From: Actinomycetes bacterium
GTDB taxonomy: Bacteria; Actinomycetota; Thermoleophilia; Gaiellales; F1-60-MAGs149
Direction of reading: 5' to 3'
Assembly: GCA_025360225.1 (NCBI GenBank)
Contig: JANYCN010000034.1
Coordinates: 34,063 to 98,062 of the forward strand
Length of the DNA: 64,000 nt
Shown here: positions 8,033 through 51,888 of the stretch, piece after piece
Position numbering within the stretch: position 1 is the stretch's first letter
Layout: each line of letters starts with the position of its first letter
The notes under the pieces: generated by a model
The model's database searches: none
What the model was told of the DNA's origin: nothing
What the model saw: only the letters and a program-made list of their open reading frames with translations
Made by a program: the position numbers and the translations under genes

Positions 8033-8061
8033 GTATCGACCGCTCACGCGCCTTCCTCAAG
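8033..8061 (-). promoter_or_regulatory. Sigma-28-like promoter (copy D) for the GT2-rfbH-rfbG operon
   Basis: On the minus strand the sequence reads CTTGAG-N15-GTCGATAC, then 7 nt, then the GTG at 8025. The -35 hexamer is the reverse complement of the -35 of copy A. Confidence 0.55.
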
Positions 8062-8084
8062 CCAGCTTCAAGCGTTGCCGATAC
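8056..8084 (+). promoter_or_regulatory. Sigma-28-like promoter (copy A) for the ThDP enzyme-rfbF operon
   Basis: CTCAAG (8056-8061), then N15, then GCCGATAC (8077-8084). The ATG at 8095 follows 10 nt downstream. Confidence 0.6.
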
Positions 8085-8094
8085 CACGGAGAAG

Positions 8095-9813
8095 ATGGCA
8101 ACCCTGGCTGACTGGCTCGGCTCGTTCCTGTTCGAGCAGGGCGTTCGCCGCGTCTATCACGTGCCGGGCGGGATGATCGCGTTGCTCATCGACGCGCTCG
8201 CGCAAACGCCTGGGATCGAGGTGATCACGACCCGCCACGAACAGGGCGCGGCGTTCGCGGCCGAGGGCGAGGCGCGGCTCACGGGCATCCCGGGCGTCGC
8301 CCTCGCGACCTCGGGTCCCGGCGCGACGAACCTCCTCACAGGGATCGGCTCGTGCTACTTCGACTCGATTCCCGCGGTCTTCATCACAGGCCAGGTGAAA
8401 CGCTCCGAGCAGCGGGGGACGCGAGCGGTCAGGCAGGTCGGCTTTCAGGAGACCGATATCGTCGTGATGGCGGCGCCGGTGACGAAGGCGGCGATCGCGA
8501 TCCGGACGATCGAGGAGGCTGCGGGCGTCTTCGAGGACGCGTTCCGCATCGCGCTCAGCGGCCGGCCGGGGCCTGTTCTCGTTGACGTTCCGCTCGACCT
8601 GCAGCGCGCGGAGGTGAGACGCCGCCCGCGCCTCGTCGCGGGACAGCCTCCCGTTGCGGCGTCCGAAGCCGACGTGAAGCGCGCCGCTCGTCGTCTGCTC
8701 GCGGCGGAACGGCCGCTGCTCCTCGCGGGCGGCGGTGTCTGGCACGCCGACGCCCAGCAGGCGCTGGTGCGGGTGGCCACGCTCGCCGACACGCCGATCG
8801 TGCACAGCTTGATGGCGACCGACGTCGTGCCCGCCGGCCACCGTCACCGCTGCGGGATGATCGGCACGTACGGCAACCGTTGGGCGAACCTCGCGCTCGG
8901 GCGCAGCGACCACCTGCTCGTCGTCGGCAGCCGACTCGACATCCGACAGACAGGTGCTGACGTTGCGTGGTTCTGTCACGATCGCACGGTCGATCGAGTG
9001 GACTGTGACGAGGCCGAGCTCGCCGAGCCGGCGGCTACGGAGGCGATCCGCGGAGACGCGCGGCTGTTCCTGTCGGCGCTCGCCGACGAGCTGCTCCAGC
9101 TCGAGCCACCGCCTGCGCGTAACGCGTGGCTCGACGAGATCGGCGACCTGCGCACCGCGTGGCCAGACGTCGACGAGGTCGGTGACGTCGGGAACATCAA
9201 CCCGAACGCGTTCGTCGCGGAGCTGACGGCGGGCGCCGCGAGCGTCAGCGCCATCGTCACCGATGTCGGCCAGCACCAGATGTGGCTCGCACAGTCCGTC
9301 CGTCCGCGTTCTGGTCAACGGGTGATCACGCCCGGGGGCATGGCCGCAATCGGCTTCGGGCTGCCGGCAGCGATCGGCGTCTCGCTCGCCGACCGGTCGA
9401 GCCGCGTGCTTCTCGTCACCGGCGACGGCGGGCTCCAGACGAACCTGCAGGAGCTCGAGACGCTCGTGCACCTGAACCTCGACGTGACCATCGTCGTCCT
9501 TGACAATCGCTGTCACGGGATGGTGCGGCAGTTCCAGACAAGCTACCTCGACGGCAGGCACGTCGGGACGCGCGACGGCTACAGCGCGCCAGACTTCCTG
9601 CGCGTCGCAACGGCCTTCGGCATCCCGTCGCTTGGGATCGCCGAGCCGGCGGAGGTCGGCTCGGGGGTCGACTTCGCGCTCGACGGGTCGGGCCCACGGC
9701 TCCTCGTCGTCGCCGTCGATCCGGACTGCGACGTCTACCCGAAGGTCGCCTTCGGGCGCCCGCTGACCGAGATGGAACCGTTCGTTCGACCCGTTGCCTT
9801 GGAGGGAACGTGA
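8095..9813 (+). CDS. Thiamine-diphosphate-dependent enzyme of the acetolactate-synthase fold; YerE-like candidate for branched-chain sugar synthesis
   Basis: MATLADWLGSFLFEQGVRRVYHVPGGMIALLIDAL...TRHEQGAAFAAEGEARLTG...ATSGPGATNLLTG and the later GDGGLQTNLQELET motif mark a ThDP enzyme. Length is 572 aa. It has a GTGA overlap with rfbF. I saw no ALS small subunit. Confidence 0.8.
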   Translation: MATLADWLGSFLFEQGVRRVYHVPGGMIALLIDALAQTPGIEVITTRHEQGAAFAAEGEARLTGIPGVALATSGPGATNLLTGIGSCYFDSIPAVFITGQVKRSEQRGTRAVRQVGFQETDIVVMAAPVTKAAIAIRTIEEAAGVFEDAFRIALSGRPGPVLVDVPLDLQRAEVRRRPRLVAGQPPVAASEADVKRAARRLLAAERPLLLAGGGVWHADAQQALVRVATLADTPIVHSLMATDVVPAGHRHRCGMIGTYGNRWANLALGRSDHLLVVGSRLDIRQTGADVAWFCHDRTVDRVDCDEAELAEPAATEAIRGDARLFLSALADELLQLEPPPARNAWLDEIGDLRTAWPDVDEVGDVGNINPNAFVAELTAGAASVSAIVTDVGQHQMWLAQSVRPRSGQRVITPGGMAAIGFGLPAAIGVSLADRSSRVLLVTGDGGLQTNLQELETLVHLNLDVTIVVLDNRCHGMVRQFQTSYLDGRHVGTRDGYSAPDFLRVATAFGIPSLGIAEPAEVGSGVDFALDGSGPRLLVVAVDPDCDVYPKVAFGRPLTEMEPFVRPVALEGT

Positions 9814-10616
9814 ACGCACCGAAGGTCGTGATCCTCTGTGGTGGACAGGGAACGAGGCTCCGCGAGGAGACGGAGTTTCGCCCGAAGCCGATGGTCGAGG
9901 TGGGTGGTCGGCCGCTCCTGTTCCACATCATGAAGCTGTATGAGCACCACGGCTTGAACGAGTTCGTGCTCTGCCTCGGCTACCGCGGCTCGATCATCAA
10001 GGAGTACTTCCTCAACTACCGCACGCTGAACGGCGACTGCACCGTCGACCTGCGTTCGGGTACCGTCGAGCTTGAAGGCTCGCCGACCGAGGACTGGCGG
10101 GTCACCCTCGCAGAGACCGGAGAGGACGCGATGACGGGCGCTCGGATCAGCCGAGTCGCGCGTCACGTCGGCAACGACGACGTGTTCTGCTGCACCTACG
10201 GCGATGGCCTCGCGGACGTCGACGTGTCGGCGCTCCTCGACTTCCACCGCGCACACGGGAAGGTCGCGACCGTCACCGGCGTCGTCCCGCCTGGCCGCTT
10301 CGGCCAGCTTCGCACGAGCGGCGCCGCCGTCCAGCGCTTCGCCGAGAAGCCGACGGGACGCGAGCGGATCAACGGCGGCTTCTTCGTCTTCTCCCGTTCG
10401 ATCTTCGACGTCCTCTCCGACAAGCCGAGCTGCGTGCTCGAGCGCGAGCCGCTCGAGCAGCTCGCCGCCGCGGGTGAGCTGATGGTGTACGAGCACGACG
10501 GGTTCTGGCAGTGCGCCGACACGCTGCGCGACGTCGAGCTGCTTCGCGGGCTCTGGGATGGCGGCGCGCCGCCGTGGCGGGTGTGGGACGCGGTGCGCGC
10601 ACCGCTCGCCGCGTAG
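9810..10616 (+). CDS. rfbF: Glucose-1-phosphate cytidylyltransferase
   Basis: KVVILCGGQGTRLREETEFRPKPMVEVGGRPLLFHIMKLYEHHGLNEFVLCLGYRGSIIKEYFLNY is a near-canonical RfbF sequence. Confidence 0.9.
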   Translation: MNAPKVVILCGGQGTRLREETEFRPKPMVEVGGRPLLFHIMKLYEHHGLNEFVLCLGYRGSIIKEYFLNYRTLNGDCTVDLRSGTVELEGSPTEDWRVTLAETGEDAMTGARISRVARHVGNDDVFCCTYGDGLADVDVSALLDFHRAHGKVATVTGVVPPGRFGQLRTSGAAVQRFAEKPTGRERINGGFFVFSRSIFDVLSDKPSCVLEREPLEQLAAAGELMVYEHDGFWQCADTLRDVELLRGLWDGGAPPWRVWDAVRAPLAA

Positions 10617-10623
10617 TCCCTGG

Positions 10624-12003: not shown

Positions 12004-12011
12004 CTGCATCG

Positions 12012-12040
12012 GTATCGACGCGCACGTCTGACCACTTGAG
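12012..12040 (-). promoter_or_regulatory. Sigma-28-like promoter (copy C)
   Basis: On the minus strand the sequence reads CTCAAG-N15-GTCGATAC. ATG codons follow 2 nt and 8 nt downstream. Confidence 0.6.
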
Positions 12041-12058
12041 GAGGTTGCCCGTACCACC

Positions 12059-12087
12059 CTCAAGTGGTATCGCGACTCCGTCGATAC
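12059..12087 (+). promoter_or_regulatory. Sigma-28-like promoter (copy B) for the 14-kb plus-strand glycosyltransferase/flagellar gene string
   Basis: CTCAAG-N15-GTCGATAC, then 7 nt, then the GTG at 12095. It is an exact mirror image of copy C. Confidence 0.6.
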
Positions 12088-12094
12088 CGACGAA

Positions 12095-14764
12095 GTGTCG
12101 GCAACCTCGCCACGGGTGACGCTCGCGATCGCAACCCACGACCGTCCAGCGTACCTCGCTGAGGCGCTCGCCAGCGCGTACGCGCAGGACTACGCCGACC
12201 TGGAGATCCTCGTCGTTGACGACGCCTCGGGGCCGGAGACCGTGGCGCTCCTCGACGCCCAGAGCGACCCGCGCCTGCGCGTCCTGCGCCTCGACGAGAA
12301 CGTCGGCATGGTCGGCGCGTTCAACCGGCTCTGGCAGGAAGCACGCGGTGAGCTGGTCGCGATCCTCGACGACGACGACGTCTGCGTGCCGGATCGCGTC
12401 AGCCGCTCGGTCGCCGTCTTCGACCGGCACCCCGGTACGCACGTCGCCTTCGGCGACTCGATCACGATCGACGCGAACGGTCTACCGATCGGCGAGTGGA
12501 CGGTCGGGCACCTCGCCGGCGAGCGGCTCCTTGACGTCCTCGTACGGCGCGTCAACATGATCTGCCACACGACCGTGATGGTCCGTCGCAGCCTGTACGC
12601 GACGCTCGGCGGCTACGACGTCGACCTCCCTGTCGCGCAGGACTACGAGCTGTGGCTCCGAGCCCTGCCCGATCACGAGTTCCGGACGATCCCGGGTGGG
12701 CCGGTGGTGCGCGTTCGCCGACACGGGGCGAACTCGACCACGGCGGCGATGCCTGAGCGAGAGCAGGCGTACGTCGAGCTCAGCATCCGAAAGGCGCTGG
12801 GGTACAGGACGCTGCGCGAGCTCGTCCCGGAGATCGCCTGGGACGCCATCCCGGAGGCGTGGGCCGAGCGGCACGCGCGGATCGTGCTCGCAGCGGCGTT
12901 CGCGCGCCGCGGGCTCACCGCGCTCGCCGCCGAGCAGCTCGAAGGCGCCGACGCGGGCCCGCAGACCTTCGACGCGGCGGCCCGTGCCGACCCGACGTTC
13001 GCGGAGCCGGGCTCGCGCGGCTCGATCGTCCTCACCTCGTTCGGCTGGAACGATGCCGGGGGCGGCACGCGGGTGCCGCGAAACGTCGCACGCGCGCTCG
13101 TCCGTCGTGGGTACGCCGTGACGGTGTTCTACGCCGGCGTCGCTGAGCGTCCCGGGTTGACGCCGTACGCGGTCGAGGAGACGAGCGAGGACGGGATTGA
13201 CCTCGTCGGCGTGTTCAACCGACCACACGGCCTGCTCGACCTCGGCCACCCGCTTCGCGAGATCGACGACCCACCGATCGCGCGAGCCTTCGGCGAGCTG
13301 CTCGATCGGGTAAGGCCCAACGTGATCCACTACCACAACCTCCACAACCTCGGAGCGTCGCTCGTCGACGAGTCGCGATCACGGGGTATCCCAGCCGTCT
13401 TCTCGACGCACAACTACTGGCTCGTCTGTCCGCGCAACTACCTCTTCCGCGCCGACCTCTCGCTCTGCGACGGCCCGGCGGACGAGGGTCGGGCGTGTGC
13501 GTCGTGCGTCGACGCACCGCACCTGAGCGACGGCTACGCGGCCCGACGCAGCGGTGTTCGCGACCGGTTTTCGGCCGGCGTCGAGACCTGCCTCGCCGTC
13601 TCTGAGACGGTCGCTCACACGCTGCTCGACACCGGCTTCGACGATCGGCTCGTGCAGGTCCTGGCACAGGCGATGCCCGAGCCGGAAGGGCTCTGGCGCG
13701 CCGTCGGCGAGGCGCGACCGGCAGGCCGCCGCGGGCGCGACCTCGTCGTCGGCTTCCTCGGCTCGGCGTACCCACACAAGGGGCCCCAGGTGCTCGTCCT
13801 GGCAGCGCAGGCGATGCCCACGGACGTGCGCGTCGAGGTCCACGGCGACGTGCCGCAGCGCACGATCGGCGCCCTTCAGGCGCTTGACCGGCTCGGTCGC
13901 GTCGAGTTCGCCGGCCCGTACTCCGAGCACGACCTGCCGGCGATCCTCTCACGGATCGACGTGGCGGTCGTCCCCTCGGTCTGGTGGGACTGTGCACCGC
14001 TCGTCGTCGCCGAGTGCCTCGCCGCCGGCGTGCCGGTCGTCGGCGCGCGGATGGGCGGGATCGCCGAGGCGATCGACGATGACGTCGATGGGCTCCTCGT
14101 CGCCGGCGGCGACCCGGGCGCGCTCGCAGGGGCGATCACCCGTCTGACGACCGAGCAAGGGCTGCTCGAACGTCTCCAGGCCGGCATCAAGGCACCCGCG
14201 TCGTTCGCCCGCTACGTCGACGCGCTCGAGAGCGCGTACGCAGGCACCTATCGACGAGCGGTCGGAACGCTCACCACCGAGAGCGGCGTGGGACTTCCCC
14301 AGCGCCCCCGACCGGAGCGGGAAGTCCCGCACGCTGCGGAGAAGCTGGTGCGCTTCACGACCCGGACGAGGGCGCTCGTCGCGGCGCCCTGCTGGGGCGA
14401 CCCGGACGGTCTCGAAGCGATCCTCGCGTGCTGGGCGTCGGCGTTCACCGAGGCCGACGACGTCGCCCTCGTGCTGCTCGCCGACACGCACGTCGACGGC
14501 CGCAGCGACGAGCTCGCGGGACGGATCGATGAGGCGGCGCGGGCGCGCGGGATCGACCTCGACGGTGACCTCGCGGAGCTCGTGCTCGTCGATGACGCCA
14601 GCGCCGGCCGCGCCCTCGCGCACGCAGCGGCGGGCGATGGCTACCTGTGCCTGCACCGCGGCGCGCCTGGCCTCGAGCGCGCAGCGGTGCGCGCCGGAGT
14701 GCCGTTGCTCGAGCTCGACGTTGCAGCGTTTCGCGGCTGGTCGACGGGGCGGATCGCCGCGTGA
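12095..14764 (+). CDS. Three-module glycosyltransferase: GT2, GT4 and a C-terminal half-Rossmann module
   Basis: The N-terminus VTLAIATHDRPAYLAEAL...VVDDASGPET...ILDDDDV is GT2. The middle region IVLTSFGWNDAGGGTRVPRNVARAL...APLVVAECLAAGVPVVGARMGG is GT4. The C-terminal ~130 aa (LVAAPCWGDPDGLEAILACWASAFTEADDVALVLLAD) recurs in the next two GT4 proteins. Confidence 0.85.
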   Translation: MSATSPRVTLAIATHDRPAYLAEALASAYAQDYADLEILVVDDASGPETVALLDAQSDPRLRVLRLDENVGMVGAFNRLWQEARGELVAILDDDDVCVPDRVSRSVAVFDRHPGTHVAFGDSITIDANGLPIGEWTVGHLAGERLLDVLVRRVNMICHTTVMVRRSLYATLGGYDVDLPVAQDYELWLRALPDHEFRTIPGGPVVRVRRHGANSTTAAMPEREQAYVELSIRKALGYRTLRELVPEIAWDAIPEAWAERHARIVLAAAFARRGLTALAAEQLEGADAGPQTFDAAARADPTFAEPGSRGSIVLTSFGWNDAGGGTRVPRNVARALVRRGYAVTVFYAGVAERPGLTPYAVEETSEDGIDLVGVFNRPHGLLDLGHPLREIDDPPIARAFGELLDRVRPNVIHYHNLHNLGASLVDESRSRGIPAVFSTHNYWLVCPRNYLFRADLSLCDGPADEGRACASCVDAPHLSDGYAARRSGVRDRFSAGVETCLAVSETVAHTLLDTGFDDRLVQVLAQAMPEPEGLWRAVGEARPAGRRGRDLVVGFLGSAYPHKGPQVLVLAAQAMPTDVRVEVHGDVPQRTIGALQALDRLGRVEFAGPYSEHDLPAILSRIDVAVVPSVWWDCAPLVVAECLAAGVPVVGARMGGIAEAIDDDVDGLLVAGGDPGALAGAITRLTTEQGLLERLQAGIKAPASFARYVDALESAYAGTYRRAVGTLTTESGVGLPQRPRPEREVPHAAEKLVRFTTRTRALVAAPCWGDPDGLEAILACWASAFTEADDVALVLLADTHVDGRSDELAGRIDEAARARGIDLDGDLAELVLVDDASAGRALAHAAAGDGYLCLHRGAPGLERAAVRAGVPLLELDVAAFRGWSTGRIAA

Positions 14765-16422
14765 CACGGGTGCTCCTGACCTCCTACGGCTGGGAGGATG
14801 CCGGCGGCGGGACGCGCGTCCCACGAAACGTCGCGCGGGAGCTGCGCCGTCGCGGACACGACGTGACGGTGTTTCACGCCGCTGTCGACGACCTCGCAGG
14901 GGCGCCAGAGTACGCCGTCCGCAGGTGGCGGGACGGTGACGGCATCGAGCTCGTTGGCGTCCACAACCGCCCGCACGTGATGCTCGATCTCGACCAGCCG
15001 CTGCGCGAGATCGACGACCCGGCGATCTCCGCGACGTTCGGCGCGACGCTCGATCGTGTCCGCCCCGAGGTGGTGCACTTTCACAACCTGCACAACCTCG
15101 GCGCGGCGCTGATCGACGAGACGCGTGCGCGCGGCATCCCGGCGTTCTACACGACCCACAACCACTGGCTCGTGTGCCCTCGCGCGTACCTCGTCACGGC
15201 GGCGGGCGAGCTGTGCGACGGCGTCGCCGACGAGGGACGATCGTGCGCGGCGTGCGCGAACGCGCCAGCGCGGGCGCGGGAGTTCGCCGTGCGCCGGAGC
15301 GAGGTCCGCGATCGCTTCACCCTCGGCGTCGAGCGGTGCCTCGCCGTCTCGGCCAGCGTCGCACGCACCATGGAGAGCGTCGGCTACCGGCCCGACCAGA
15401 TCGTCGTGCTGCAGCAGGCGATGCCTGAACCAGAGGAGCTGTGGCGGCTGGTCGGCCGCGATCGCGCTCCGGGGCCGATCGGCGAGGGCCTCGTTGTCGG
15501 CTTCATCGGCTCGGCGCACGCGCTGAAGGGTCCAAAGGTGCTGGTTGACGCCGCGCAGCTGCTCCCGCCCGGTGTCCATGTCCGGATCCACGGCGACGTG
15601 CGCCCGGACGTCGAACGGTGGCTTCGCTCCGCCGACACAGGAGCCCGCGTCGAGCTCGCCGGTGCGTTCGCGACTGCCGAGCTGCCGACGATCCTCGCCT
15701 CGATCGACGTCGCCGTCGTGCCATCCGTCGTGCAGGACTGTGCGCCTCTCGTGATCGCCGAGTGCCTCGCGGCACGCGTCCCCGTGGTGGGCGCACGGAT
15801 CGGCGGCATCCCCGAGCTTGTTCGCGATGGCGTCGACGGTCTGCTGTTCGCCCCTGGCGACGCCGACGCCCTCACGGCCGTGTTGACGAGGCTCGCAGAC
15901 GAGGACGGCCTGCTCGAGGAGCTGCAGGGTGCGATCGTCGCGCCGACGCCGTTCGCGACCTTCGTCGACGAGCTCGAGCGTACCTACGCAGGCTCCACGA
16001 CGGTGGCTGTGAGCGCCTCCTCGCAACGGAGACGTACGGGCGAGGTGCCGGGCGGCCGTGGTCGGAACCTGCTCGCAGCTCCAGCATGGGGACGCGGCGA
16101 TCTGCTCGACGCCCTGCTGCAGAGCTGGACAGAAGCGTTCTCACCGACCGACGACGTGGCGCTCGTGCTGCTCATTGACACCACTGGCGACAGCGACGTC
16201 ACGGCAGCGGGCGAGCAGATCGAGGCGATCATTGGCGGCGCCGGCGTCGCGGACGTCGTCCTGCTTCAGGCAACTGCCGGCGAGGCGCTCGCCCTCGCGG
16301 AGTCGTGCGACGGCGTCGTCGCCCTGCACCGCGGTGCACCCGGCCTCCTCCGCGCTGCGATCGCGAGCGGCGTACCCGTCGTCGCGCCCGACCACGCCGC
16401 GCTGCGAGCGTGGGCCGCATGA
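14761..16422 (+). CDS. GT4 glycosyltransferase plus a C-terminal half-Rossmann module (paralog 2)
   Basis: GTGA overlap at 14761-14764. Motifs are VLLTSYGWEDAGGGTRVPRNVAREL, APLVIAECLAARVPVVGARIGG and LLAAPAWGRGDLLDALLQSWTEAFSPTDDVALVLLID. Confidence 0.85.
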   Translation: MTRVLLTSYGWEDAGGGTRVPRNVARELRRRGHDVTVFHAAVDDLAGAPEYAVRRWRDGDGIELVGVHNRPHVMLDLDQPLREIDDPAISATFGATLDRVRPEVVHFHNLHNLGAALIDETRARGIPAFYTTHNHWLVCPRAYLVTAAGELCDGVADEGRSCAACANAPARAREFAVRRSEVRDRFTLGVERCLAVSASVARTMESVGYRPDQIVVLQQAMPEPEELWRLVGRDRAPGPIGEGLVVGFIGSAHALKGPKVLVDAAQLLPPGVHVRIHGDVRPDVERWLRSADTGARVELAGAFATAELPTILASIDVAVVPSVVQDCAPLVIAECLAARVPVVGARIGGIPELVRDGVDGLLFAPGDADALTAVLTRLADEDGLLEELQGAIVAPTPFATFVDELERTYAGSTTVAVSASSQRRRTGEVPGGRGRNLLAAPAWGRGDLLDALLQSWTEAFSPTDDVALVLLIDTTGDSDVTAAGEQIEAIIGGAGVADVVLLQATAGEALALAESCDGVVALHRGAPGLLRAAIASGVPVVAPDHAALRAWAA

Positions 16423-17795
16423 GCGTCTCGCTGCTCCTCGTCGTCCGGTTCGGCGCCACGGCGCTCGTCGGCCTTCTGGAGCATCTCGCCGCGCTCCCAT
16501 CGGATCTCGACTTCGAGCTGGTGATCGCCGCCCACGGACCGGACGGCGCCGTCCGCACCGTGCTCGACACCCTCGAGGGCGACGTGACGATCGTCGAGGT
16601 CGCGGACGACGCGAGCACCGCATCGGCCCTCGAGGTGGCGCGCGGCGCCGCGCGCTGGCGAAGGCACGTCGTGCTGACGCCTTCCCTGCGTCCCACCTCG
16701 AGCGAGCTGGAGCGTCTCGCCAGCGGGGGGAGAGCTCGCGTGCGACGCGTCGCGACCGGTCCGCTCGCGTCCGTGATCATCTGCACGCGCGATCGCCCGC
16801 AGGAGGTACGCGGTTGCGTCGAGGGCCTCCTTGCGGCGGGACTCGGGGCGTCTGGCTGTCAGGTGGTGATCGTCGACAACGGTGCGACCGATGACGCGGT
16901 GGAGACGATCGCTGCCCTGGCGGCGAGCGCGCCGGGCACGGTCGCCGCCGTGCGAGAGCCGATCGCCGGCCTCTCCCGGGCTCGGATGACCGGTGCGATG
17001 GCCGCCGTACACGACGTCCTCATCTACCTCGACGATGACGCGCGGGCGGACGACGGGTGGCTCGAGGCCCTGCGCGACGCCTTCGACGATCCTGCTGTCG
17101 CGATCGCCGGCGGGCCGATCCGCGCGGTCTGGGACGCCCCAACCGAGGGCGAGCGGGTGCCGCCCGCGTGGGGCTTCCTGCTTGGGGTGCTCGACCTTGG
17201 CGACGCTGACCGGACGATCACACCCGACCAGGGACCGTATGGCGGCAACTGGGCCGTTCGCCGGCCCGTCCTCGAGGCCGTCGGCGGATTTGACCAAGCG
17301 TTCGGCCCGAGCGACGCCTCGCGCCTTGGCGGCGAGGAGAGCCACGTCAGCCAGGAGGTCAGTCGGCGCCACCTCGGGCTGATCCGCTACGTCGCGGCCG
17401 CGTCGGTCGGCCATCGCACGTCCGCTTCCGTGACGGACGCGCAGCTCGCGCTCCGGGCGTTCCGGGTCGGCGCGGGAGAGATCGCCGTCGGCGCGCGGGG
17501 CGGGACGATCGACGCTGCCGCCGCGCGCCGCCGCATGCGGACGGCCGCCCAGGGCGTCGCGGCGGTGCTCGACCCGTTGCCGACGAGCATTGCCGCGTGT
17601 CTCGCCGCGCTCGCAGACAGCGAGGCGGCCCTCGCCGACCGGCTGCTCGCCGCCGCGCGAGCCGGGCACGTCGCCGGGTGTGCGCAGGTCGCCGCGACGT
17701 GGACGGTGACGCTTGGCGCGCGATCGCTCGCGATCGAGCCCGAGAACGCGCGTGGAATCGTCGAACAGACGGGAGAGGCGGTCTCGAGCTGGTGA
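16419..17795 (+). CDS. Family 2 glycosyltransferase preceded by a degenerate GT2-like N-terminal half
   Basis: ATGA overlap at 16419-16422. SVIICTRDRPQEVRGCVEGL...VVIVDNGATDD...LIYLDDDA are the GT2 motifs. Confidence 0.8.
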   Translation: MSVSLLLVVRFGATALVGLLEHLAALPSDLDFELVIAAHGPDGAVRTVLDTLEGDVTIVEVADDASTASALEVARGAARWRRHVVLTPSLRPTSSELERLASGGRARVRRVATGPLASVIICTRDRPQEVRGCVEGLLAAGLGASGCQVVIVDNGATDDAVETIAALAASAPGTVAAVREPIAGLSRARMTGAMAAVHDVLIYLDDDARADDGWLEALRDAFDDPAVAIAGGPIRAVWDAPTEGERVPPAWGFLLGVLDLGDADRTITPDQGPYGGNWAVRRPVLEAVGGFDQAFGPSDASRLGGEESHVSQEVSRRHLGLIRYVAAASVGHRTSASVTDAQLALRAFRVGAGEIAVGARGGTIDAAAARRRMRTAAQGVAAVLDPLPTSIAACLAALADSEAALADRLLAAARAGHVAGCAQVAATWTVTLGARSLAIEPENARGIVEQTGEAVSSW

Positions 17796-20548: not shown

Positions 20549-20549
20549 C

Positions 20550-23066
20550 GTGGCGCTGAAGATCGTTCGGGCATCCCAGGACGAGCGCCTGCAGACGCCG
20601 CTGCGCGCCTGGTACGGCGGCCAGCACGACGAGGCCATCACCCTGCTCGCGTCGCCCGAGGGCGGCCGTTTCGCGGACGACGCGACGCAGGTCGTCGCGG
20701 CAGCGCTCGCCACCGAACCGGAGCGCGTCGCGGCGATCGGCACGGCCCTGACGCGCTGGACCGACGAGTCGGCCGCCTACCGGATCCTCCGCCGCAGCGC
20801 CGAGAGCCTGATCGACGAGACGGCCGCGATCTCGCCCGCGCGCTGGGCGCCCCGCGGGATGACGCTGCTTGCCCTGACACGTCCGTGGCTCGACGTCCAT
20901 CCAGCCGAGCCGGTCCTGCTCAACTACGTCGGTGTCACGCTGTACGGGTTGAACGAGCCGTCCCTCGCGCTCGGCCTCTTGCAGGCTGCGCAGGCGATCG
21001 ACCCGACGGTCGAGAACATCGCCGGCAACCTGGCCGCCGTTCGCCACCGGGTGCGACACCCTGTCGTCCTGCACCTCGGCCCGCGCGAGAGCGGACAGAT
21101 GAAGGCACAGCGCGCCTTCTTCAAGGCGCTCGGCGGGCGTGCCCGCGTAGCCGCCGACCCGGTTCGCCTGTCGCTCTGCATGATCGTCCGCGACGAGGAG
21201 GAGATGCTCCCCGAGTGCCTGGCGTCGTGCGCCGCAGGGGTTGACGAGATCGTCATCGTCGACACCGGATCGACCGATCGAACCGTCGAGATCGCCGAGT
21301 CGTTCGGCGCCACGGTGCTGCACTTCCCGTGGAACGGCTCATTCTCCGATGCCCGTAACCACGGCATCGCTGCGGCAACGGGCACCCACATCCTCTGGCT
21401 CGACGCCGACGAGCGGCTCGAGGACGGCGACGCGGAGAACCTGCACGCGGTCGCCGGCGAGCCGTACCGCGAGGCGCACTGGCTCGTCGAGACGAACTTC
21501 ACCGGTCAGGAGGAGGTCGGAACCGCGGCCACCCACCTCGCCCTGCGGATCTGGAAGAACCGGCCGCAGTACCGTTTCACCGGTGCGATCCACGAGCAGA
21601 TCCGCGTCTCGATGCCGACCGATCTGGGAGAGCGGTTCGCCGTCTCTAGCCTCCGCATCCGCCACTACGGGTACCTGAAGAGCCGGATCGACGAGCGCGA
21701 CAAGCACCAGCGCAACCTGACGCTGCTGCTGAAGGAGCTTTTGCAGAGCCCGAACAACGCCTTCACGCACTTCAACCTCGGCACCGAGTACCTCGGCACG
21801 CAGGACCTCGACCTGGCGTCGAAGCACCTCGAGGAGGCATACCGGCTGCTGCAGCGCGACGAGGGCTGGTACGAGTACGCGTACGCGTCGCTGCTGGCGA
21901 CGCGCCTCGTGGGCATACGCCGCGTCCGCGGCGACCTTGATGGTGCCGACGTGCTCGCCTCGCAGCTCTTGCAGGCCTACCCGGCGTTCACCGACCTCGT
22001 GTTCGAGCGTGGCTTGATCGCCCGTGAGCGGGACGACAGGCACGGTGCGATCGAGCACTTCGAGACGTGCCTTGAGATGGGCGACGCACCGGCGCGGTTT
22101 GCCGGGATGGTCGGTCGTGGCACGTTCCTCGCGCTCGCGGCGCTCGCGACGACCGCCCTCGAGATCGACGACCAGGACCGTGCGATCGGCTACCTCGAGC
22201 GGTCGCTGGACGAGCACCCGTCCTACCTCCCGGCAGGCCTCGACCTGACGGACGCGCTCCTCGTCGCTCCGGGCTGCGATCCGGCCGCCGTCCTCGCCCG
22301 CATGGAGGCAACGGGCAACGACGTCGCGACCTGGTGGCTGTTCCTCGGCACCGCGTTCTACGAGCGTGGCCACTCGCTGATCGCCGAGTCCCTGTTTCGT
22401 CGAGCGCTCGCGAAGGCGCCGACGAACCCGGCCGCGAGCATCGGCCTCGTCGAGACGCTGCTCACCCAGCACCGTTACGCCGAGGCAGCCGCCGGAGCAC
22501 CGGATCTGCCGGTCGGCACGCCGTTCTTCCTCGCCGTCGAGCGCGCGCGGATCCTCGCCCTCTCGCTCGCCAACGAGGCGACCGCCGCGACCGCCGCGGC
22601 CGAGCGGTTCGCCGCGGGCGGCGCCGACCCAGCGGAGGCGGCGTTCCTCGTCCACCTCGCACCGGCGATCGCTGGGATGGAGGACGGCGTCGCGCTGCCC
22701 GCTTCGTCGGCGCCATTCGCGCTTCGCATGCTCGACTCGCTCGCACGTCTCGAGGAGTACGACGCGTTCGGGCGGCTCGTCCCGCTCGTCACCGGCGCGA
22801 TCGGCAACGGTCGTGTGGCGGCGCTGTCGCTCGCCGAGCTGTACCTCGCGCGCGGCTTCTACCAGCTCGCGGGTGAGCAGGCGATCGCCGCGATCGAGAT
22901 CGGCGGGCCCGAGGCGCGCGCGCTCGCCGTCCTCGGCAAGGCGGCGGTTGCCGAAGGACTGTTCGACGACGCGTTGCCGGTGCTCGAGGCCTCGCTCGAG
23001 CTCGATCCGTCGCAGGTGCCGGTGCGCACCCTGCTCGACACGCTACGCACCCGCGTCGCGGCGTAA
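20550..23066 (+). CDS. TPR-GT2-TPR protein (FlmG-like architecture); candidate protein glycosyltransferase
   Basis: The central LSLCMIVRDEEEMLPECLASC...IVIVDTGSTDRT...LWLDADERLE is a GT2 domain. It is flanked by TPR-like helical repeats (FNLGTEYLGTQDLDLASKHLEEAY, GLDLTDAL...FLGTAFYERGH...). Confidence 0.8.
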   Translation: MALKIVRASQDERLQTPLRAWYGGQHDEAITLLASPEGGRFADDATQVVAAALATEPERVAAIGTALTRWTDESAAYRILRRSAESLIDETAAISPARWAPRGMTLLALTRPWLDVHPAEPVLLNYVGVTLYGLNEPSLALGLLQAAQAIDPTVENIAGNLAAVRHRVRHPVVLHLGPRESGQMKAQRAFFKALGGRARVAADPVRLSLCMIVRDEEEMLPECLASCAAGVDEIVIVDTGSTDRTVEIAESFGATVLHFPWNGSFSDARNHGIAAATGTHILWLDADERLEDGDAENLHAVAGEPYREAHWLVETNFTGQEEVGTAATHLALRIWKNRPQYRFTGAIHEQIRVSMPTDLGERFAVSSLRIRHYGYLKSRIDERDKHQRNLTLLLKELLQSPNNAFTHFNLGTEYLGTQDLDLASKHLEEAYRLLQRDEGWYEYAYASLLATRLVGIRRVRGDLDGADVLASQLLQAYPAFTDLVFERGLIARERDDRHGAIEHFETCLEMGDAPARFAGMVGRGTFLALAALATTALEIDDQDRAIGYLERSLDEHPSYLPAGLDLTDALLVAPGCDPAAVLARMEATGNDVATWWLFLGTAFYERGHSLIAESLFRRALAKAPTNPAASIGLVETLLTQHRYAEAAAGAPDLPVGTPFFLAVERARILALSLANEATAATAAAERFAAGGADPAEAAFLVHLAPAIAGMEDGVALPASSAPFALRMLDSLARLEEYDAFGRLVPLVTGAIGNGRVAALSLAELYLARGFYQLAGEQAIAAIEIGGPEARALAVLGKAAVAEGLFDDALPVLEASLELDPSQVPVRTLLDTLRTRVAA

Positions 23067-23188
23067 CCACGGTGTTTCCCCGAACGGGGGATCTTTCGAC
23101 ACGCTTGCGATCCGTCCAATATGATCTTGTGTAGCTGTGTCCCCGGCATGAGGCCAGGGTCCTGCGAGGTACCGCCAAGGAGGCCGCG

Positions 23189-23503
23189 GTGCAAGCACAG
23201 CGCGCGACAGATGTCAGCGAGTTCCCCGACCGCATCACGCCGATCGAGCGCGTGCACGCGGCAGCACAGGTGCACGCGGCGACGCAGGCCCATGCGGGGT
23301 TCTCCGTCGTCGTGGCGGACGCGACGCCGAGCCGGACGTTCGAGGTCCGCTACGGCCTCGATCCGATCGCCAACGTGTGGGTGGCGAGCTTCTTCGACGG
23401 CGCCACCGGCGAGCTCGTGAAGACGGTGCCCTCGACGAAGGTCATGCACCAGCTGGCAGAGCTGCGGGCGATCCACGAGCGCTCCGTCGATCACCACGCC
23501 TGA
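23189..23503 (+). CDS. flaG: FlaG-like flagellar protein
   Basis: GTG start preceded by AAGGAGG. The C-terminal FEVRYGLDPIANVWVASFFDGATGELVKTVPSTKVMHQLAEL resembles the FlaG family core. Length is 104 aa. Confidence 0.7.
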   Translation: MQAQRATDVSEFPDRITPIERVHAAAQVHAATQAHAGFSVVVADATPSRTFEVRYGLDPIANVWVASFFDGATGELVKTVPSTKVMHQLAELRAIHERSVDHHA

Positions 23504-23552
23504 CGACTCCGGATCCGCGGTTGACGTACGTCGCGAAAACGGCAAACTTCCC

Positions 23553-23581
23553 CTTCACCGATGGGGGTTGCACGCCGATAG
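23553..23581 (+). promoter_or_regulatory. Weaker sigma-28-like element (copy G) upstream of fliS
   Basis: CTTCAC-N15-GCCGATAG, ending 47 nt before the GTG at 23629. The -10 half and the spacing are good but the -35 half is poor. Confidence 0.35.
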
Positions 23582-23628
23582 ATGGAGAAGGCGATACCGC
23601 ATCGCACCCCATCGCGGTCGGAGGACAC

Positions 23629-24000
23629 GTGGCAACGGGCTACCAGGCGTACCAGACGAACGCGATCCAGACCGCTCCGCCAGAGCAGCTCGTCGTGATG
23701 CTCTACGACGGCTGTCTGCGGTTCCTTCGTCGCGCCGAGAGCGCCGCGAAGACCGGTACCCGGCCCCAGGTGACCGAGGCCGTCGCACGCGCGACGGCGA
23801 TCATCATGGAGCTCAACGCCACGCTCGACATGGAGCGTGGGGGAGAGATCGCGTCGAACCTGCGCTCGCTGTACTTCTTCCTGCACCGGCACCTGCTCGA
23901 GGCGTCCCGCGAGGGTTCGCCGGAGCAGATTCGCCAGGCGATCGGGCTGATCGGAGACCTGCGCGACGCCTTCGCGGAGGCGGCGAAGAAGGTCGCGTGA
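23629..24000 (+). CDS. fliS: Flagellar export chaperone FliS
   Basis: YQAYQTNAIQTAPPEQLVVMLYDGCLRFLRRA...ATAIIMELNATLDMERGGEIASNLRSLYFFLHRHLLEA is canonical FliS. The GTG at 23629 is preceded by GGAGGA. Confidence 0.9.
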   Translation: MATGYQAYQTNAIQTAPPEQLVVMLYDGCLRFLRRAESAAKTGTRPQVTEAVARATAIIMELNATLDMERGGEIASNLRSLYFFLHRHLLEASREGSPEQIRQAIGLIGDLRDAFAEAAKKVA

Positions 24001-24326
24001 TCGGCAGCGACGTCGAGAGGGTGCTGCGAACGGTCGTCGAGCTGACCGAGCTCGAGTCGGCGCTGATCGCCGAGCGCGACGCGGCGGCCCTGACGATGCT
24101 CGGCGATGAACGCGAGGCGCTCCTCCGTGAGCTTCCCGACGCCCTCCCCGAGCGCTGCGCACCCCTCGTCGAGCGCTTCAGGCGCGCTCGCGACGCGAAC
24201 CTGATCGCTGCCACGGCGGCGGCGGCGGCGATCCGCTCCCAGCTCGGCACGACCCACCAACGACGCAAGGCGATCGGCGGTTACGCCTCCGACGCCCGTG
24301 AGCGTCCGGAGCGCGGGGTCGCCTGA
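23997..24326 (+). CDS. Small helical protein, possibly an FlgN/FliT-like flagellar chaperone
   Basis: GTGA overlap with fliS and TGATG overlap with fliD. The sequence VVELTELESALIAERDAAALTMLGDEREALLREL is weakly FlgN-like. Length is 109 aa. Confidence 0.45.
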   Translation: MIGSDVERVLRTVVELTELESALIAERDAAALTMLGDEREALLRELPDALPERCAPLVERFRRARDANLIAATAAAAAIRSQLGTTHQRRKAIGGYASDARERPERGVA

Positions 24327-26188
24327 TGAGCACGACGCCGACGACCTCGACCTCGGGGAACTCGATCAACTTCACCGGGCTCGCGTCCGGCATCGACACC
24401 GCGTCGATCGTCACCGAGCTGATGCGGATCGAGCACCGGCCGGTCGACCTGATGACGATCGCGCAGACCGTCGAGCAGACCCGCAACCAGGCGCTCGCTG
24501 ACATCTCAACGAAGCTGAAGTCGCTGAAGACGGCAGCGGACTCGATCAGCGACCAGGCGTTCTGGACGGGAGCGGCGCACGGAACCTCCGGTGACGAGTC
24601 GTCGTTCACCGTCGCCGTCGCCGCGGGCGCGCCGAAGGCCACCTACCAGGTGCAGGTGAAGAACCTCGCCTCAGGTGACGTCTGGGCACAGCAGGCAACG
24701 GCGGGGACGCACACCTTCGGCGAGGTGTACGCCGGCGCTGGCGTCCTCGGTACGAGCACCTCGCTGCTCAGCTCGCTGACGACCGCGACCGGCACCTCGC
24801 TCGGCCTCGTCGCCGGCCAGACGGTGTCGCTCGGGGCATCCGTCGGCGGCTCGCCGCTGACCACGACGCCCTTCACGGTCACCGCGACCTCGACGCTCGA
24901 CGACCTCAAAGGCTGGGTGCAGACCCAGCTGCCAGGCGCGAGCGTCGGCATCGCGACGGGCGGGCGGATCCGCATCACGAGCGGTGTCGGCACCGACCAG
25001 GACGTCATCGGCGCACGGCTCAGCAGCTCCGGACCAGCCTCCGCCGTGTTCAACAGCCAGTTCAACGCGCCCGTTGCGAACACGCCGGCTCTCGGTCTCG
25101 GCAAGGTGAACGCCGACGACACGCTGCACGTCGGCGCGTCAGGCATGACCTTCGACGTGACCGTGCGCGCCGGCTGGACGATGGCGCAGGTCGCCCAGGC
25201 GATCAACGGCGCGAACGGCGGCGTCACGGCCGGCGTCACCGATGGCCGCCTGCGGATCTCCGCGAAAGACACCGGAACCATCGGCGGGGGCGTATCGATC
25301 TCCTCGAGCGGCTCGGCCGCGGGTGACCTCGCGCTCGTTCGCCAGTCGACGGCACGAGACGCGCTCGTGACGGTCGACGGCATCGACGTATCGAGCGCGA
25401 CGAACACCACGAGCTCGGTGATTCCCGGCGCGACGCTGACGCTGCTGAAGAGCATGACGACGAGCGCGACGGCGACGACCGACCCGAACTGGGTCGACTC
25501 CGCGGAGGCAACGAAACGCGCGCAGGGGTACGTCGACGCGTACAACGTGGTGCTCGACACCGTCAACGCCGCGGTCACCGAGCAGAAGGTGCCGAAGCCT
25601 GCAAACGCCGGTGACCGTCTGCGGGGCCTGCTGTTCAACGACGGGACGCTGACGACGATCCAGGACGGCCTGCGCAACGCGATGGCGAACGCCGTCGGCG
25701 GTCTCGCGCCGGGCAAGGGGCTCGGCACGAACATCGGCATCTCCACCGGCGCAGCGAACAGCGGCGGGGTGGCGAACAACAAGAGCGCGATCGACGGACG
25801 GCTGACGTTCGACGCGACGGCGTTCCAGGCGGCGTTCGCGAACGACCGGGAGTCGGTACGCAACGTCATCGGCCAGGTCGGCTCGACATCGCGCACCACC
25901 GGTCTCGCCGCCCGCGTCTCCGACCTCGTCGCGAACTACACCTCCTCGACGAGCTACATCGGCGTCAACGGCACCCTGCACACGCTGAACGGCGGCGGCA
26001 TCCTCGCGGCGGCGATCACGGGATCGGCCGCGAAGATCAAGGACTACGACCAGCGCATCGCCGACATGACCGACCGCCTGACGCTCCGCGAGGCGACGCT
26101 GAAGGCGCAGTTCACCGCGATGGAGACGGCGATCAGCCGGCTGAAGGCGGCGCAGGTCAGCTTCCCGACGACCACGACGGGCGGGTAG
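24326..26188 (+). CDS. fliD: Flagellar filament cap protein FliD (HAP2)
   Basis: INFTGLASGIDTASIVTELMRIEHRPVDLM...TKLKSLKTAADSI at the N-terminus, and C-terminal ...RLTLREATLKAQFTAMETAISRLKAAQ, are typical of FliD. Confidence 0.9.
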   Translation: MSTTPTTSTSGNSINFTGLASGIDTASIVTELMRIEHRPVDLMTIAQTVEQTRNQALADISTKLKSLKTAADSISDQAFWTGAAHGTSGDESSFTVAVAAGAPKATYQVQVKNLASGDVWAQQATAGTHTFGEVYAGAGVLGTSTSLLSSLTTATGTSLGLVAGQTVSLGASVGGSPLTTTPFTVTATSTLDDLKGWVQTQLPGASVGIATGGRIRITSGVGTDQDVIGARLSSSGPASAVFNSQFNAPVANTPALGLGKVNADDTLHVGASGMTFDVTVRAGWTMAQVAQAINGANGGVTAGVTDGRLRISAKDTGTIGGGVSISSSGSAAGDLALVRQSTARDALVTVDGIDVSSATNTTSSVIPGATLTLLKSMTTSATATTDPNWVDSAEATKRAQGYVDAYNVVLDTVNAAVTEQKVPKPANAGDRLRGLLFNDGTLTTIQDGLRNAMANAVGGLAPGKGLGTNIGISTGAANSGGVANNKSAIDGRLTFDATAFQAAFANDRESVRNVIGQVGSTSRTTGLAARVSDLVANYTSSTSYIGVNGTLHTLNGGGILAAAITGSAAKIKDYDQRIADMTDRLTLREATLKAQFTAMETAISRLKAAQVSFPTTTTGG

Positions 26189-26242
26189 GCGCTGCTCCCC
26201 TGCGACACGCGTGCCTGGCACCGGTGTCGCAGCTGGCCTACC
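26184..26242. terminator. GC-rich bidirectional hairpin between convergent fliD and the 925-aa gene
   Basis: There is a perfect 9-bp stem, CTGCGACAC (26200-26208) paired with GTGTCGCAG (26224-26232). An outer pair GGTAGGC/GCCTACC contains both stop codons. There is no U-tract. Confidence 0.5.
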
Positions 26243-29015: not shown

Positions 29016-29055
29016 GGGACGACGCTATCACACCCCGCGCGTGAGCGCGAACCGG

Positions 29056-29304
29056 TCAGCCCCGGCGCGGACCTGGAGCGAGCGCGTCGTTGCCGGGCCT
29101 CGTCAGGACGACCTGCAGGTCTCGGAGGACGCGGATCGCGAACCCTGCCTCGCAGGACGCGAGGTAGGAGCGCCAGGTGCGAAGGAAGCGCTCGTCGTAG
29201 CCGAGCAGGCGGACCTGCTCGATGTCGCGGATCCAGTCGGGCCGCCGTCGGAACCGCTCGTAGCGGTCGGCGGGAACGGCGATCGACTGGAGGCACGCGA
29301 GCCC
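29056..29304 (-). pseudogene. 3' remnant of a cyclopropane-fatty-acyl-phospholipid-synthase-family methyltransferase
   Basis: LQSIAVPADRYERFRRRPDWIRDI..EQVRLLGYDERFLRTWRSYLASCEAGFAIRVLRDLQVVLTRPG matches only the C-terminal ~20 percent of CFA synthases. It appears to have an internal gap. The rest of the 208-aa ORF is low-complexity. Confidence 0.5.
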
Positions 29305-29307
29305 GGT

Positions 29308-29688
29308 CGGCTCCCGGTGACGGTGACGCCGCGCGGCGTCGCGAGCCGCACGCAGCCGATCGCCGTCGAGGATGTGATCGGGTATCTCGTCGCTGCACTC
29401 GATCACCCCGCGTCGCCAGGCGGAGTCGTCTTCGAGATCGGCTGCCGGGACGTCGTCACCTACCGCGACCTGATCGGGGAGTGCGCCGTCGTCGAGCGCT
29501 TCGAGATCGGGCACGTCAAGCGCCTGCTCCAGCTCGAGCTCACGGCCGGCACCGTTGGCTCCGTGATTGCCCCGACCGCATTCCTCGAGCCAGCCGGGCT
29601 CGCCGGCCTTGCCTACCGGTACGCGACCTGGCCGATCCACGACCGGATCTTCCGGGGGATGGCGCGCGCGATCGGCCGACATGCGGAA
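29308..29688 (+). pseudogene. 3' remnant of an SDR / DUF2867-type NAD(P)-binding protein
   Basis: VTVTPRGVASRTQPIAVEDVIGYLVAALDHPASPGGVVFEIGCRDVVTYRDLI ... AYRYATWPIHDRIFRGMARAIGRHA matches only the C-terminal part of that family. There is no Rossmann N-terminus. The upstream part of the ORF overlaps the 925-aa gene. Confidence 0.45.
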
Positions 29689-29758
29689 GCGGGTGGAGGG
29701 AATCGAACCCTCGTCTGAGGCTTGGAAGGCCGCCGCTCTACCATTGAGCTACACCCGC
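29688..29758 (-). tRNA. tRNA-Gly (anticodon UCC)
   Basis: The reverse complement GCGGGTGTAGCTCAATGGTAGAGCGGCGGCCTTCCAAGCCTCAGACGAGGGTTCGATTCCCTCCACCCGCT folds as a cloverleaf. The anticodon loop is CTTCCAA and the T-loop is TTCGATT. There is one C-U mismatch in the anticodon stem. CCA is not encoded. Confidence 0.9.
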
Positions 29759-29775
29759 CCGCTGCTCGGAGGATA

Positions 29776-29804
29776 CTCAAGCCGGCGGCCGCAGCGTCCG
29801 ATGC
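29776..29804 (+). promoter_or_regulatory. Sigma-28-like promoter (copy F) for the PilZ gene
   Basis: CTCAAG-N15-TCCGATGC, then 7 nt, then the GTG at 29812. This is the same geometry as copies B and D. Confidence 0.5.
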
Positions 29805-36165: not shown

Positions 36166-36168
36166 GGC

Positions 36169-36678: not shown

Positions 36679-36698
36679 GCTCGTTCAGGTTCTCGCGG

Positions 36699-36732
36699 CT
36701 CCCCCGTCCGGCGCATCGTCCGGACGGGGGAG
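36699..36732 (-). promoter_or_regulatory. Perfect 13-bp GC-rich intercistronic stem-loop
   Basis: CTCCCCCGTCCGG (36699-36711) pairs with CCGGACGGGGGAG (36720-36732), leaving an 8-nt loop. It lies between the stop at 36743 and the ATG at 36678. No U-tract follows. Confidence 0.6.
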
Positions 36733-36742
36733 GCTGCGAGAG

Positions 36743-40177: not shown

Positions 40178-40215
40178 GTCAGGGTCTCCTGCAGGGATGC
40201 GGGGGTTGGCGGTGG

Positions 40216-41736: not shown

Positions 41737-41745
41737 GTCGTTACC

Positions 41746-51680: not shown

Positions 51681-51888
51681 GTCGTCGCATCTCCTCGGCG
51701 CATTGGGCAACTGCTCCTTCTCTTCTCGCGCGTGCGTTGTCTTGAACCGCACGGCGCGGCTCGTTTCGGGTGTGTTCGGGGCGGCCAGGACGCGTTCCGT
51801 GGCGGGCCTGAACGATCGGTTTCTCCGTCGTGGGGATAACGGAGGTCTCCGCTAACCTACATGGTTCTACCGGAAACTGTCGATGTTT

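Follow-up and report, generated by a model that had tools for sequence, protein, structure and literature searches.

The subject of this work is a bipartite DNA element, CTCAAG-N15-G(C/T)CGAT(A/G)C, which recurs upstream of sugar, glycosyltransferase (GT), filament and PilZ genes in a stretch of 64,000 nucleotides (nt) from an Actinomycetes bacterium (contig JANYCN010000034.1; the whole stretch is called the window below). We consider it quite likely that this element is the promoter of the host's flagellar sigma factor of the FliA/WhiG family (sigma-28), that it is present in at least six copies and probably in eight (sites A to H), and that these copies split a glycosylation island, the fliS-fliD genes and a PilZ gene into separate units, with leaderless messenger RNAs (mRNAs) at B, C, D, F and H. 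In the mechanism that we propose, the flagellar sigma factor would recognise the element, sites A, B, C, E, F and H (and probably also D and G) would each act as a promoter in its own right, and all the promoted units would be switched on together with flagellum synthesis.

Sites of the element and their promoter class

The window has a G+C content of 70% and, judged from the names on its homologues, comes from an organism of the class Thermoleophilia (Solirubrobacterales/Gaiellales-like). The eight sites are listed here with their scores in the weight matrix described below.

Site A, 8056-8084, plus strand: CTCAAG-N15-GCCGATAC; matrix score 17.0, rank 2; 10 nt, then ATG 8095
Site B, 12059-12087, plus strand: CTCAAG-N15-GTCGATAC; matrix score 15.4; 7 nt, then GTG 12095
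Site C, 12012-12040, minus strand: CTCAAG-N15-GTCGATAC; matrix score 15.4; 8 nt, then ATG 12003
Site D, 8033-8061, minus strand: CTTGAG-N15-GTCGATAC; 7 nt, then GTG 8025
Site E, 20486-20514, plus strand: CTCAAG-N15-GCCGAAAA; matrix score 18.8, the best of the window; 35 nt, then GTG 20550
Site F, 29776-29804, plus strand: CTCAAG-N15-TCCGATGC; matrix score 14.1, rank 5; 7 nt, then GTG 29812
Site G, 23553-23581, plus strand: CTTCAC-N15-GCCGATAG, equal to TTCAC-N15-GCCGA; low matrix score; 47 nt, then GTG 23629
Site H, 6633-6661, minus strand: TTCAAG-N15-GCCGATAG; matrix score 12.5, rank 6; 7 nt, then GTG 6625

Sites A to G had been described in an earlier note on this DNA, correctly in coordinates, sequence and distance to the start codon. 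Site H was missed there; it sits in the gap after the stop codon of a GT2 gene (6690-6688). The -10 core NNCGA(T/A) is found in all eight sites, and the -35 hexamer is CTCAAG in A, B, C, E and F and TTCAAG in H, whereas D carries CTTGAG and G fits only in a shifted form (TTCAC). The agreement of the -35 with CTAAAG at five of six positions, as the earlier note had it, is right for CTCAAG, but the D hexamer matches CTAAAG or CTCAAG at only four. Likewise, the six to seven of eight matches given for the -10 blocks do not extend to F, where TCCGATGC agrees with GCCGATAA at only 5/8.

Site D takes as its -35 the reverse complement of the A hexamer, on the same six bases (8056-8061). Its -10 block is identical to those of B and C and its 7-nt distance is that of B. 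Its matrix score, summed by hand, is about 2.7 bits, and it is absent from the list of matches of at least 9 bits, since its -35 matches at four positions only; judged by its -10 block and its distance, D is a probable but not a secure promoter. B and C stand back-to-back with their -35 hexamers 18 nt apart. Site E is internal, within the 3' end of a double-GT4 gene, and precedes a GT2-TPR gene and then a flaG-like gene, while G precedes fliS, a gene of 109 amino acids (aa) and fliD. The element had also been said to precede each operon head of the first 30 kb. This goes too far, because the first operon head is outside the window and the minus-strand genes at 29682-26238 have no site.

The spacer of A contains a second -35-like hexamer, TTCAAG at 8066-8071, which lies 5 nt (8072-8076) ahead of the -10 block, and whose complement sits upstream of the D hexamer. 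With such spacings, too short or too long, it probably does not function.

The weight matrix was trained only on 52 unique flagellin promoter sites of other Thermoleophilia genomes. When applied to the 128,000 positions of the window, its top six matches are E, A, B, C, F and H. At 14 bits or more there are 5 matches, compared with 0.95 in 300 dinucleotide shuffles (maximum 5), an excess that is moderate by score alone. Position is what decides, because each of the six best matches has a gene start 7-35 nt past its end, on the correct strand, an arrangement not expected by chance. The motif density, which the earlier note had offered as a check, also speaks for the element: CTCAAG-N17-CGA is present 7 times in the window, where 0.68 occurrences are expected, and 0 of 100 shuffles reached 7. 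Occurrences of this pattern at 22076 (minus strand) and 60986 (plus strand) are intragenic with poor -10 blocks and were rejected.

The textbook sigma-28 promoter has the form TAAA-N15-GCCGATAA. A closer counterpart is the published consensus of actinobacterial WhiG1 and WhiG2, with a spacer of 16 nt after the 5-mer (Denis et al., 2026; PMC13595943), and CTCAA-N16-G(C/T)CGA agrees exactly with this WhiG/FliA consensus. The element was also compared with 78 flagellin loci of Thermoleophilia (numbered with an L below), about 74 of which have enough upstream DNA. In 53 of these ~74 loci, CT(C/A)AAG-N14 (45 loci) or CT(C/A)AAG-N15 (8 loci) followed by GNCGATNA is found 55-122 nt upstream of the fliC ATG; the N15 spacing occurs among L011-L015, L030 and L034. 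In Patulibacter minatonensis DSM 18081 (L063) the fliC promoter is CTCAAG-N14-GCCGATCA, a TPR-GT2 gene has the motif 7 nt before its ATG (L063 10988) and a fliA homologue lies at L063 18073-18996. The sigma-28 class that had been proposed for the window sites thus agrees with the actinobacterial consensus and with the flagellin promoters of the relatives, and it is also supported by the flagellin-trained matrix and by orthologous sites whose spacers have diverged.

In 19 related loci, genes for FliA/WhiG-family sigma factors lie no more than 10 kb from fliC. Three sigma proteins of relatives score 214.8, 202.5 and, for Patulibacter, 181.8 bits with TIGR02479 (cutoff 189.6). The family was assigned via NCBIfam and not by the E. 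coli FliA sequence that served as a probe. L080 and L061 each have one intergenic region that contains both the promoter of a sugar operon and that of fliC. The motif is also found in relatives ahead of flhA, fliO, rod and flgL genes, and there the sigma factor apparently controls a large part of the flagellar cluster. Of the earlier claim that the island belongs to the late flagellar regulon, the link to the flagellar sigma factor is supported, but 'late' is not established, because the motif also precedes these genes. A conserved CTCAAG-N15-GCCGTTGA inside flhA of relatives lacks the CGA core and was set aside as coding-sequence conservation. In several relatives, the fliA/whiG-family sigma gene has a TPR-GT2 homologue as its divergent neighbour (L037 ~67-3527, L056 ~19-3471, L018, L036, L041 and L042).

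One could argue that the promoters are real but are read by another alternative sigma factor, such as a second FliA/WhiG paralogue of the WhiG2 type, controlled by cyclic di-GMP (c-di-GMP) and RsiG, or another group 3 or extracytoplasmic function (ECF) sigma factor, and that the island is not tied to the flagellar programme. WhiG1 and WhiG2 have similar promoters and may coexist in one genome, Actinoplanes has three FliA paralogues, the N15 spacer of the window is 1 nt off most flagellin promoters of the relatives, and sigma-28 genes were found in the related loci but not in the window. Yet the motif precedes flagellin in the 53 related genomes, some of them with N15, and sugar-operon and fliC promoters share a single intergenic region in L080 and L061. 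Moreover, sites E and G of the window would drive fliS and fliD, and the sigma genes of the related loci sit in flagellar clusters. As to ECF factors, their promoters are typically of the GGAAC/CGT type, unlike TCAA/CCGAT, and this was counted against them. We consider another sigma factor improbable.

The relatives also show that the sites are conserved. In L004, L005, L006 and L061 the neighbouring proteins are 51-71% identical to those of the window. A genome scan with the window FliD returned no relatives, and FliD relatives were obtained by protein search. Sites orthologous to B, C, E, F, G and H keep both blocks and their spacing, while the spacers have diverged. Orthologues of B are found at L006 1131, 7 nt from a GTG that was called as the start by the Joint Genome Institute (JGI), and at L005 264, 8 nt from an in-frame ATG. 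The C orthologue (L006 1112) is 7 nt from a GTG, and the back-to-back geometry of B and C recurs in L053. E has orthologues at L004 4906 and L005 3947, and in Patulibacter TPR-GT2 orthologues the motif is 7 nt before the ATG. For G, the window, L004 and L005 agree in CTTCAC, GCCGATA and the N15 spacing, and their spacer sequences differ. The orthologue of H (L061 6385) reads CTCAAG-N15-GCCGATTC, followed by 7 nt, an ATG and a reading frame of 438 aa. That of F (L005 21563) reads CTCAAG-N15-GCCGATGC, followed by 7 nt and the GTG of a PilZ gene, with 5/15 spacer bases shared. A and D had no orthologue among the sequences reached; a metagenome scan with the thiamine diphosphate (ThDP) enzyme encoded downstream of A reached no protein above 53% identity, and the proteins it did return were for the most part ordinary acetolactate synthases and lacked the motif.

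In the two closest relatives that have long contigs, an extra, shorter FliD paralogue, absent from the window, lies between the flaG-position gene and fliS (L004 7912-9184, where it is split in two open reading frames (ORFs), and L005 7822-9189). The TPR-GT2 gene of L005 (3947-7406) appears broken into several short ORFs, although the E-type promoter upstream of it is intact. The break may reflect either a pseudogene or a faulty assembly.

A different explanation would make the elements not promoters but operators to which a dimeric transcription factor binds. A/D and B/C do form inverted repeats on both strands (GTATCGAC...GCCGATAC and CTCAAGTGGT...GTCGATACCGA). However, E, F, G and H are single, oriented copies, and the half-sites are fixed at 15 nt while the distance from -35 to -35 varies between 2 and 54 nt in the 13 divergent back-to-back pairs of the related loci. 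The copies always point to a gene, with 7-10 nt to the start codon, and their sequence is that of the sigma-28 consensus and of the relatives' flagellin promoters. Operators are thus extremely unlikely, and A/D is an extreme case of the usual divergent arrangement. In the Rfam search of bases 1-32000 only transfer RNA (tRNA) was found, so that the sites are unexplained by any known RNA element.

Several points weigh against the assignment to the flagellar sigma factor. First, the domain scans of the window proteins found neither a flagellin gene nor a sigma-28 gene. Second, the shuffled sequences yield about one match of at least 14 bits per window, and D (-35 4/6, no orthologue) and G (-35 CTTCAC) score poorly. 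Third, the earlier note had taken N15 for the textbook spacing. CTCAAG-N15 corresponds to TCAA-N16, with a spacer 1 nt above the textbook form but equal to the 16 nt of published actinobacterial WhiG; among the 53 flagellin promoters of relatives, 45 have a spacer shorter by 1 nt and the other 8 share that of the window. Lastly, we found no published transcription start site (TSS) or expression data for any Thermoleophilia genome.

Start codons and predicted leaderless mRNAs

A second question is where transcription starts with respect to the start codons. In the open complex of the Pseudomonas aeruginosa fliC promoter, GCCGATAA spans -15 to -8 (PMC12784957), and because of this register +1 is placed at the 8th base after the -10 block. 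When applied to the window, +1 falls on the G of GTG in B, D, F and H and on the base before ATG 12003 in C. Sigma-28 polymerase would therefore start on the first base of the start codon at four sites and one base before it at the fifth. In B, C, D, F and H only 7-8 nt separate the -10 block from the start codon, and because of this no Shine-Dalgarno sequence is usable there; the mRNAs from these five sites are predicted to be leaderless and translated independently of a Shine-Dalgarno. E and G would give leadered mRNAs with good Shine-Dalgarno sequences (GAGGA in E, GGAGG in G). Site A is ambiguous: its predicted +1 is at about 8092, which would give a 3-nt leader, and its GGAG, 3 nt before the ATG, would be upstream of the transcript.

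The related loci (1.38 Mb) contain 232 strong matches to the matrix, with a plausible start codon 5-10 nt past the -10 block in 67 and 11-30 nt past it in 8. After weak matches the distribution is different, with 35 starts at 5-10 nt against 57 at 11-30 nt. Behind strong sites the start codons concentrate sharply at 7-10 nt. Gene families with the short distance are GT2-GT4, TPR-GT2, other GT2s, RfbH-type, CHAP, rod protein, EAL-HDOD and PilZ. The CHAP-domain (peptidoglycan hydrolase-like) family adjoins flagellin in L010-L087 (e.g. L075 2099, L009 5331-5966) and carries the motif in 32 cases, with a start codon 5-10 nt past the -10 block in nearly all.

The start codons themselves are supported by homology, since GT2 domains begin at residues 9-10 and the RfbH model aligns close to the predicted start. 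In TPR-GT2 proteins the N-terminus MALRL is conserved from the motif-proximal codon, and the JGI call puts the start of the orthologous GT2-GT4 gene exactly on the predicted base. In the case of H, GTG 6625 is in frame with an ORF of aminotransferase fold and gives a protein of 437 aa. The RfbH equivalog model scores 661.9 bits and aligns residue 4 of this protein with model position 10 of 440, while a 470-aa reading has 33 extra residues upstream of the model alignment and overlaps the upstream gene. The RfbH-type gene is thus probably of 437 and not 470 aa, and at least this one gene start is corrected.

Against the leaderless part of our proposal, many sites in relatives have their ATG at 8-10 nt; with a fixed start point these mRNAs would have leaders of 1-3 nt and may translate poorly as leaderless messages. 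A rival reading keeps the promoters but not the absence of leaders: transcription would start elsewhere or the true start codons would lie downstream, so that short leaders or re-initiation would be at work. This possibility gains from site A and the many relatives' sites with the ATG at 8-10 rather than 7 nt, from one assembly in which the GT2-GT4 start was called 7 codons further down (P0075, 882 aa) and from C, which has two in-frame ATGs, the second at 12009, 2 nt past the -10 block. On the other side, the starts peak 7-10 nt past strong sites with almost none at 11-30 nt and no usable Shine-Dalgarno, the N-termini are conserved from the predicted codon (MALRL in TPR-GT2, the RfbH model), and the register agrees with P. 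aeruginosa fliC. A leaderless mRNA is also on record for atsA of Actinoplanes missouriensis. We regard leadered mRNAs as rather doubtful, though to be taken seriously. The leaderless transcripts of the earlier note accordingly find support in the geometry, both from the P. aeruginosa fliC register and from the related loci, while the mRNA ends themselves remain a prediction.

A broader proposal, for which the balance is even, is that sigma-28 in Thermoleophilia may routinely drive leaderless mRNAs, given that ~29% of the strong matches in the sampled flagellar loci (67/232) have a start codon 5-10 nt past the -10 block, and that the island may be wired through many small units, including closely packed back-to-back pairs and an A/D pair on a shared -35 whose two directions would be mutually exclusive. 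As far as we found, the systematic abutment of sigma-28 promoter and start codon is the only feature here that has no earlier description. If the mRNAs are indeed leaderless, one alternative sigma factor would be linked to Shine-Dalgarno-independent translation across a whole class.

The PilZ gene, site F and a divergent tRNA gene

Site F needs a separate treatment due to its neighbour. A tRNA-Gly gene has its 5' end 16 nt from the CTCAAG of F and diverges from the PilZ gene; the same arrangement is present in L005. On the minus strand a TANNNT hexamer follows directly after CTTGAG, TATCCT in the window and TAGACT in L005. The promoter of tRNA-Gly must therefore overlap F, and part of the conservation of F may have this other cause, which counts against its reading as a sigma-28 site. 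In the extreme case the conserved blocks would be those of the tRNA-Gly promoter and the PilZ gene would be outside the flagellar regulon, as the 16-nt distance and the CTTGAG-TANNNT in both genomes might suggest. Yet the conserved CCGATGCC block is upstream of the place for a -35 with a 16-18 nt spacer and is unlike TTGACA, and the 7 nt to the PilZ GTG are exact in the window and in L005, although the spacer and the N-terminal codons differ. A scan around F for the sigma-70 consensus found nothing, nor did a metagenome scan with the PilZ protein for a copy of F away from the tRNA. The tRNA promoter as the whole explanation is, in our view, a long shot, and F stands as a sigma-28 site with reduced confidence, because that promoter does not explain the CCGATGCC block.

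The start of the 204-aa PilZ gene has independent support from the gene calls of a near-identical contig of a metagenome-assembled genome (MAG), where it begins at the equivalent of GTG 29812. The PilZ domain (PF07238) covers residues 100-197 (E = 6.4e-11), and the c-di-GMP receptor motifs RWAER (RxxxR) and NISLTG ((D/N)xSxxG) are present in the translation. No YcgR-type N-terminal domain was found by Pfam in the first 100 residues, and NCBIfam assigned no family to the protein. In E. coli, the PilZ protein YcgR and the phosphodiesterase PdeH are FliA-dependent class 3 products (PMC8669469). The PilZ protein of the window is like YcgR in its receptor motifs and, as predicted from site F, in its sigma-28 control, but it differs from it by lacking the YcgR N-terminal domain and by its predicted leaderless mRNA.

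The glycosylation island and known systems

The main genes around the sites are the following.

About 4320-3302, minus strand: GT gene, after the dehydratase-like gene
5342-4317, minus strand: dehydratase-like gene, after the RfbH-type gene
6625-5312, minus strand: RfbH-type gene, 437 aa, revised GTG start (site H)
8025-6688, minus strand: GT2 gene, GT2 domain from residue 9 (site D)
8095-9813, plus strand: ThDP enzyme gene (site A)
9810-10616, plus strand: rfbF-like cytidylyltransferase gene, after the ThDP enzyme gene
12003-10624, minus strand: GT4 gene (site C)
12095-20548, plus strand: run of GT genes with site B at its head
20550-26188, plus strand: GT2-TPR gene, 104-aa flaG-position gene, fliS, 109-aa gene and fliD (Pfam; gene calls of the near-identical MAG)
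29685-29759, minus strand: tRNA-Gly (TCC) (ARAGORN; Rfam 73.6 bits; alignment with L005)
29812-30426, plus strand: PilZ gene (site F)

The first 30 kb contain, among the sugar genes, a GDP-mannose dehydratase (GMD, 485 bits), two more genes of the epimerase/dehydratase family, one of them CDP-glucose 4,6-dehydratase-like, an RfbF cytidylyltransferase (341.8 bits), the RfbH-type enzyme and the ThDP enzyme, together with eight GT genes, the gene of the GT2-TPR protein among them. No exact sequence match to the window GDP-mannose dehydratase is on record. FliS and FliD were confirmed with Pfam, and sugar-nucleotide and GT genes thus cluster with fliS and fliD, as expected for a glycosylation island; the filament genes at 20550-26188 tie the sugar island to the flagellum. 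In relatives, homologous GT genes flank fliC, and the target of the island would be flagellin.

Between 4317 and 10616, RfbF and RfbH are accompanied by the CDP-glucose-dehydratase-like protein, which is below cutoff, and by the acetolactate-synthase-like ThDP enzyme. These four genes together suggest a CDP-linked 3,6-dideoxy sugar. By analogy with YerE, this sugar may be branched and yersiniose-like.

The co-regulation of flagellin modification and c-di-GMP effectors by sigma-28 is known from other phyla. In Clostridioides difficile, the flagellin-modification genes CD0240-CD0244 lie near late flagellar genes and are activated by SigD; no separate SigD promoter was described in the glycosylation cluster and read-through was proposed (PMC3865298), in contrast to the window with its at least six promoted units and divergent pairs. 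Since sigma-28 control is already known both for these genes and for the PilZ protein YcgR, the novelty that the earlier note had seen in it was overrated.

The nearest comparison is the actinobacterial WhiG study (PMC13595943), which describes several WhiG1/WhiG2 promoters inside flagellar clusters and c-di-GMP-related genes as frequent targets. The window sites have the same motif pattern as its consensus, but their -10 block ends in C and not in A and many copies abut the start codon; Thermoleophilia, glycosylation genes, PilZ and leaderless transcripts are not mentioned in that study. Another parallel is the Caulobacter crescentus flagellin O-glycosyltransferase FlmG, which combines TPR repeats and a GT domain, binds flagellin by its TPR part and has its gene among flagellar genes (PMC7591256). 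FlmG has an N-terminal TPR part followed by GT-B and is regulated by CtrA, whereas the 838-aa window protein has its GT2 domain at residues 208-304 and the TPR repeats in its C-terminal part, adjoins fliS and fliD and has a predicted sigma-28 site.

With regard to translation, leaderless transcripts of Actinomycetota, those of mycobacteria among them, carry an ATG or GTG at their 5' end or 1 nt from it, without a Shine-Dalgarno. For atsA of Actinoplanes missouriensis the TSS was mapped 1 nt ahead of the start codon and the mRNA was reported as leaderless (PMC11064477). The leaderless mRNAs described in Actinomycetota are not known to be linked to sigma-28, while in the window and its relatives they would depend on one alternative sigma factor and recur throughout the class.

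Our analysis would give a first promoter-level view of flagellar control in Thermoleophilia, an abundant and almost uncultured class of soil bacteria. It provides a flagellin-promoter matrix and a predicted regulon of glycosyltransferases, RfbH-type enzymes, CHAP hydrolases, EAL-HDOD and PilZ proteins.

Beyond the island, the region 32000-52000 is a long minus-strand block with an S8 protease, CopC/CopD, three multicopper-oxidase-like proteins and a 2777-aa beta-helix protein. Its GC skew is persistently positive, and in L004 related oxidase genes come after fliD.

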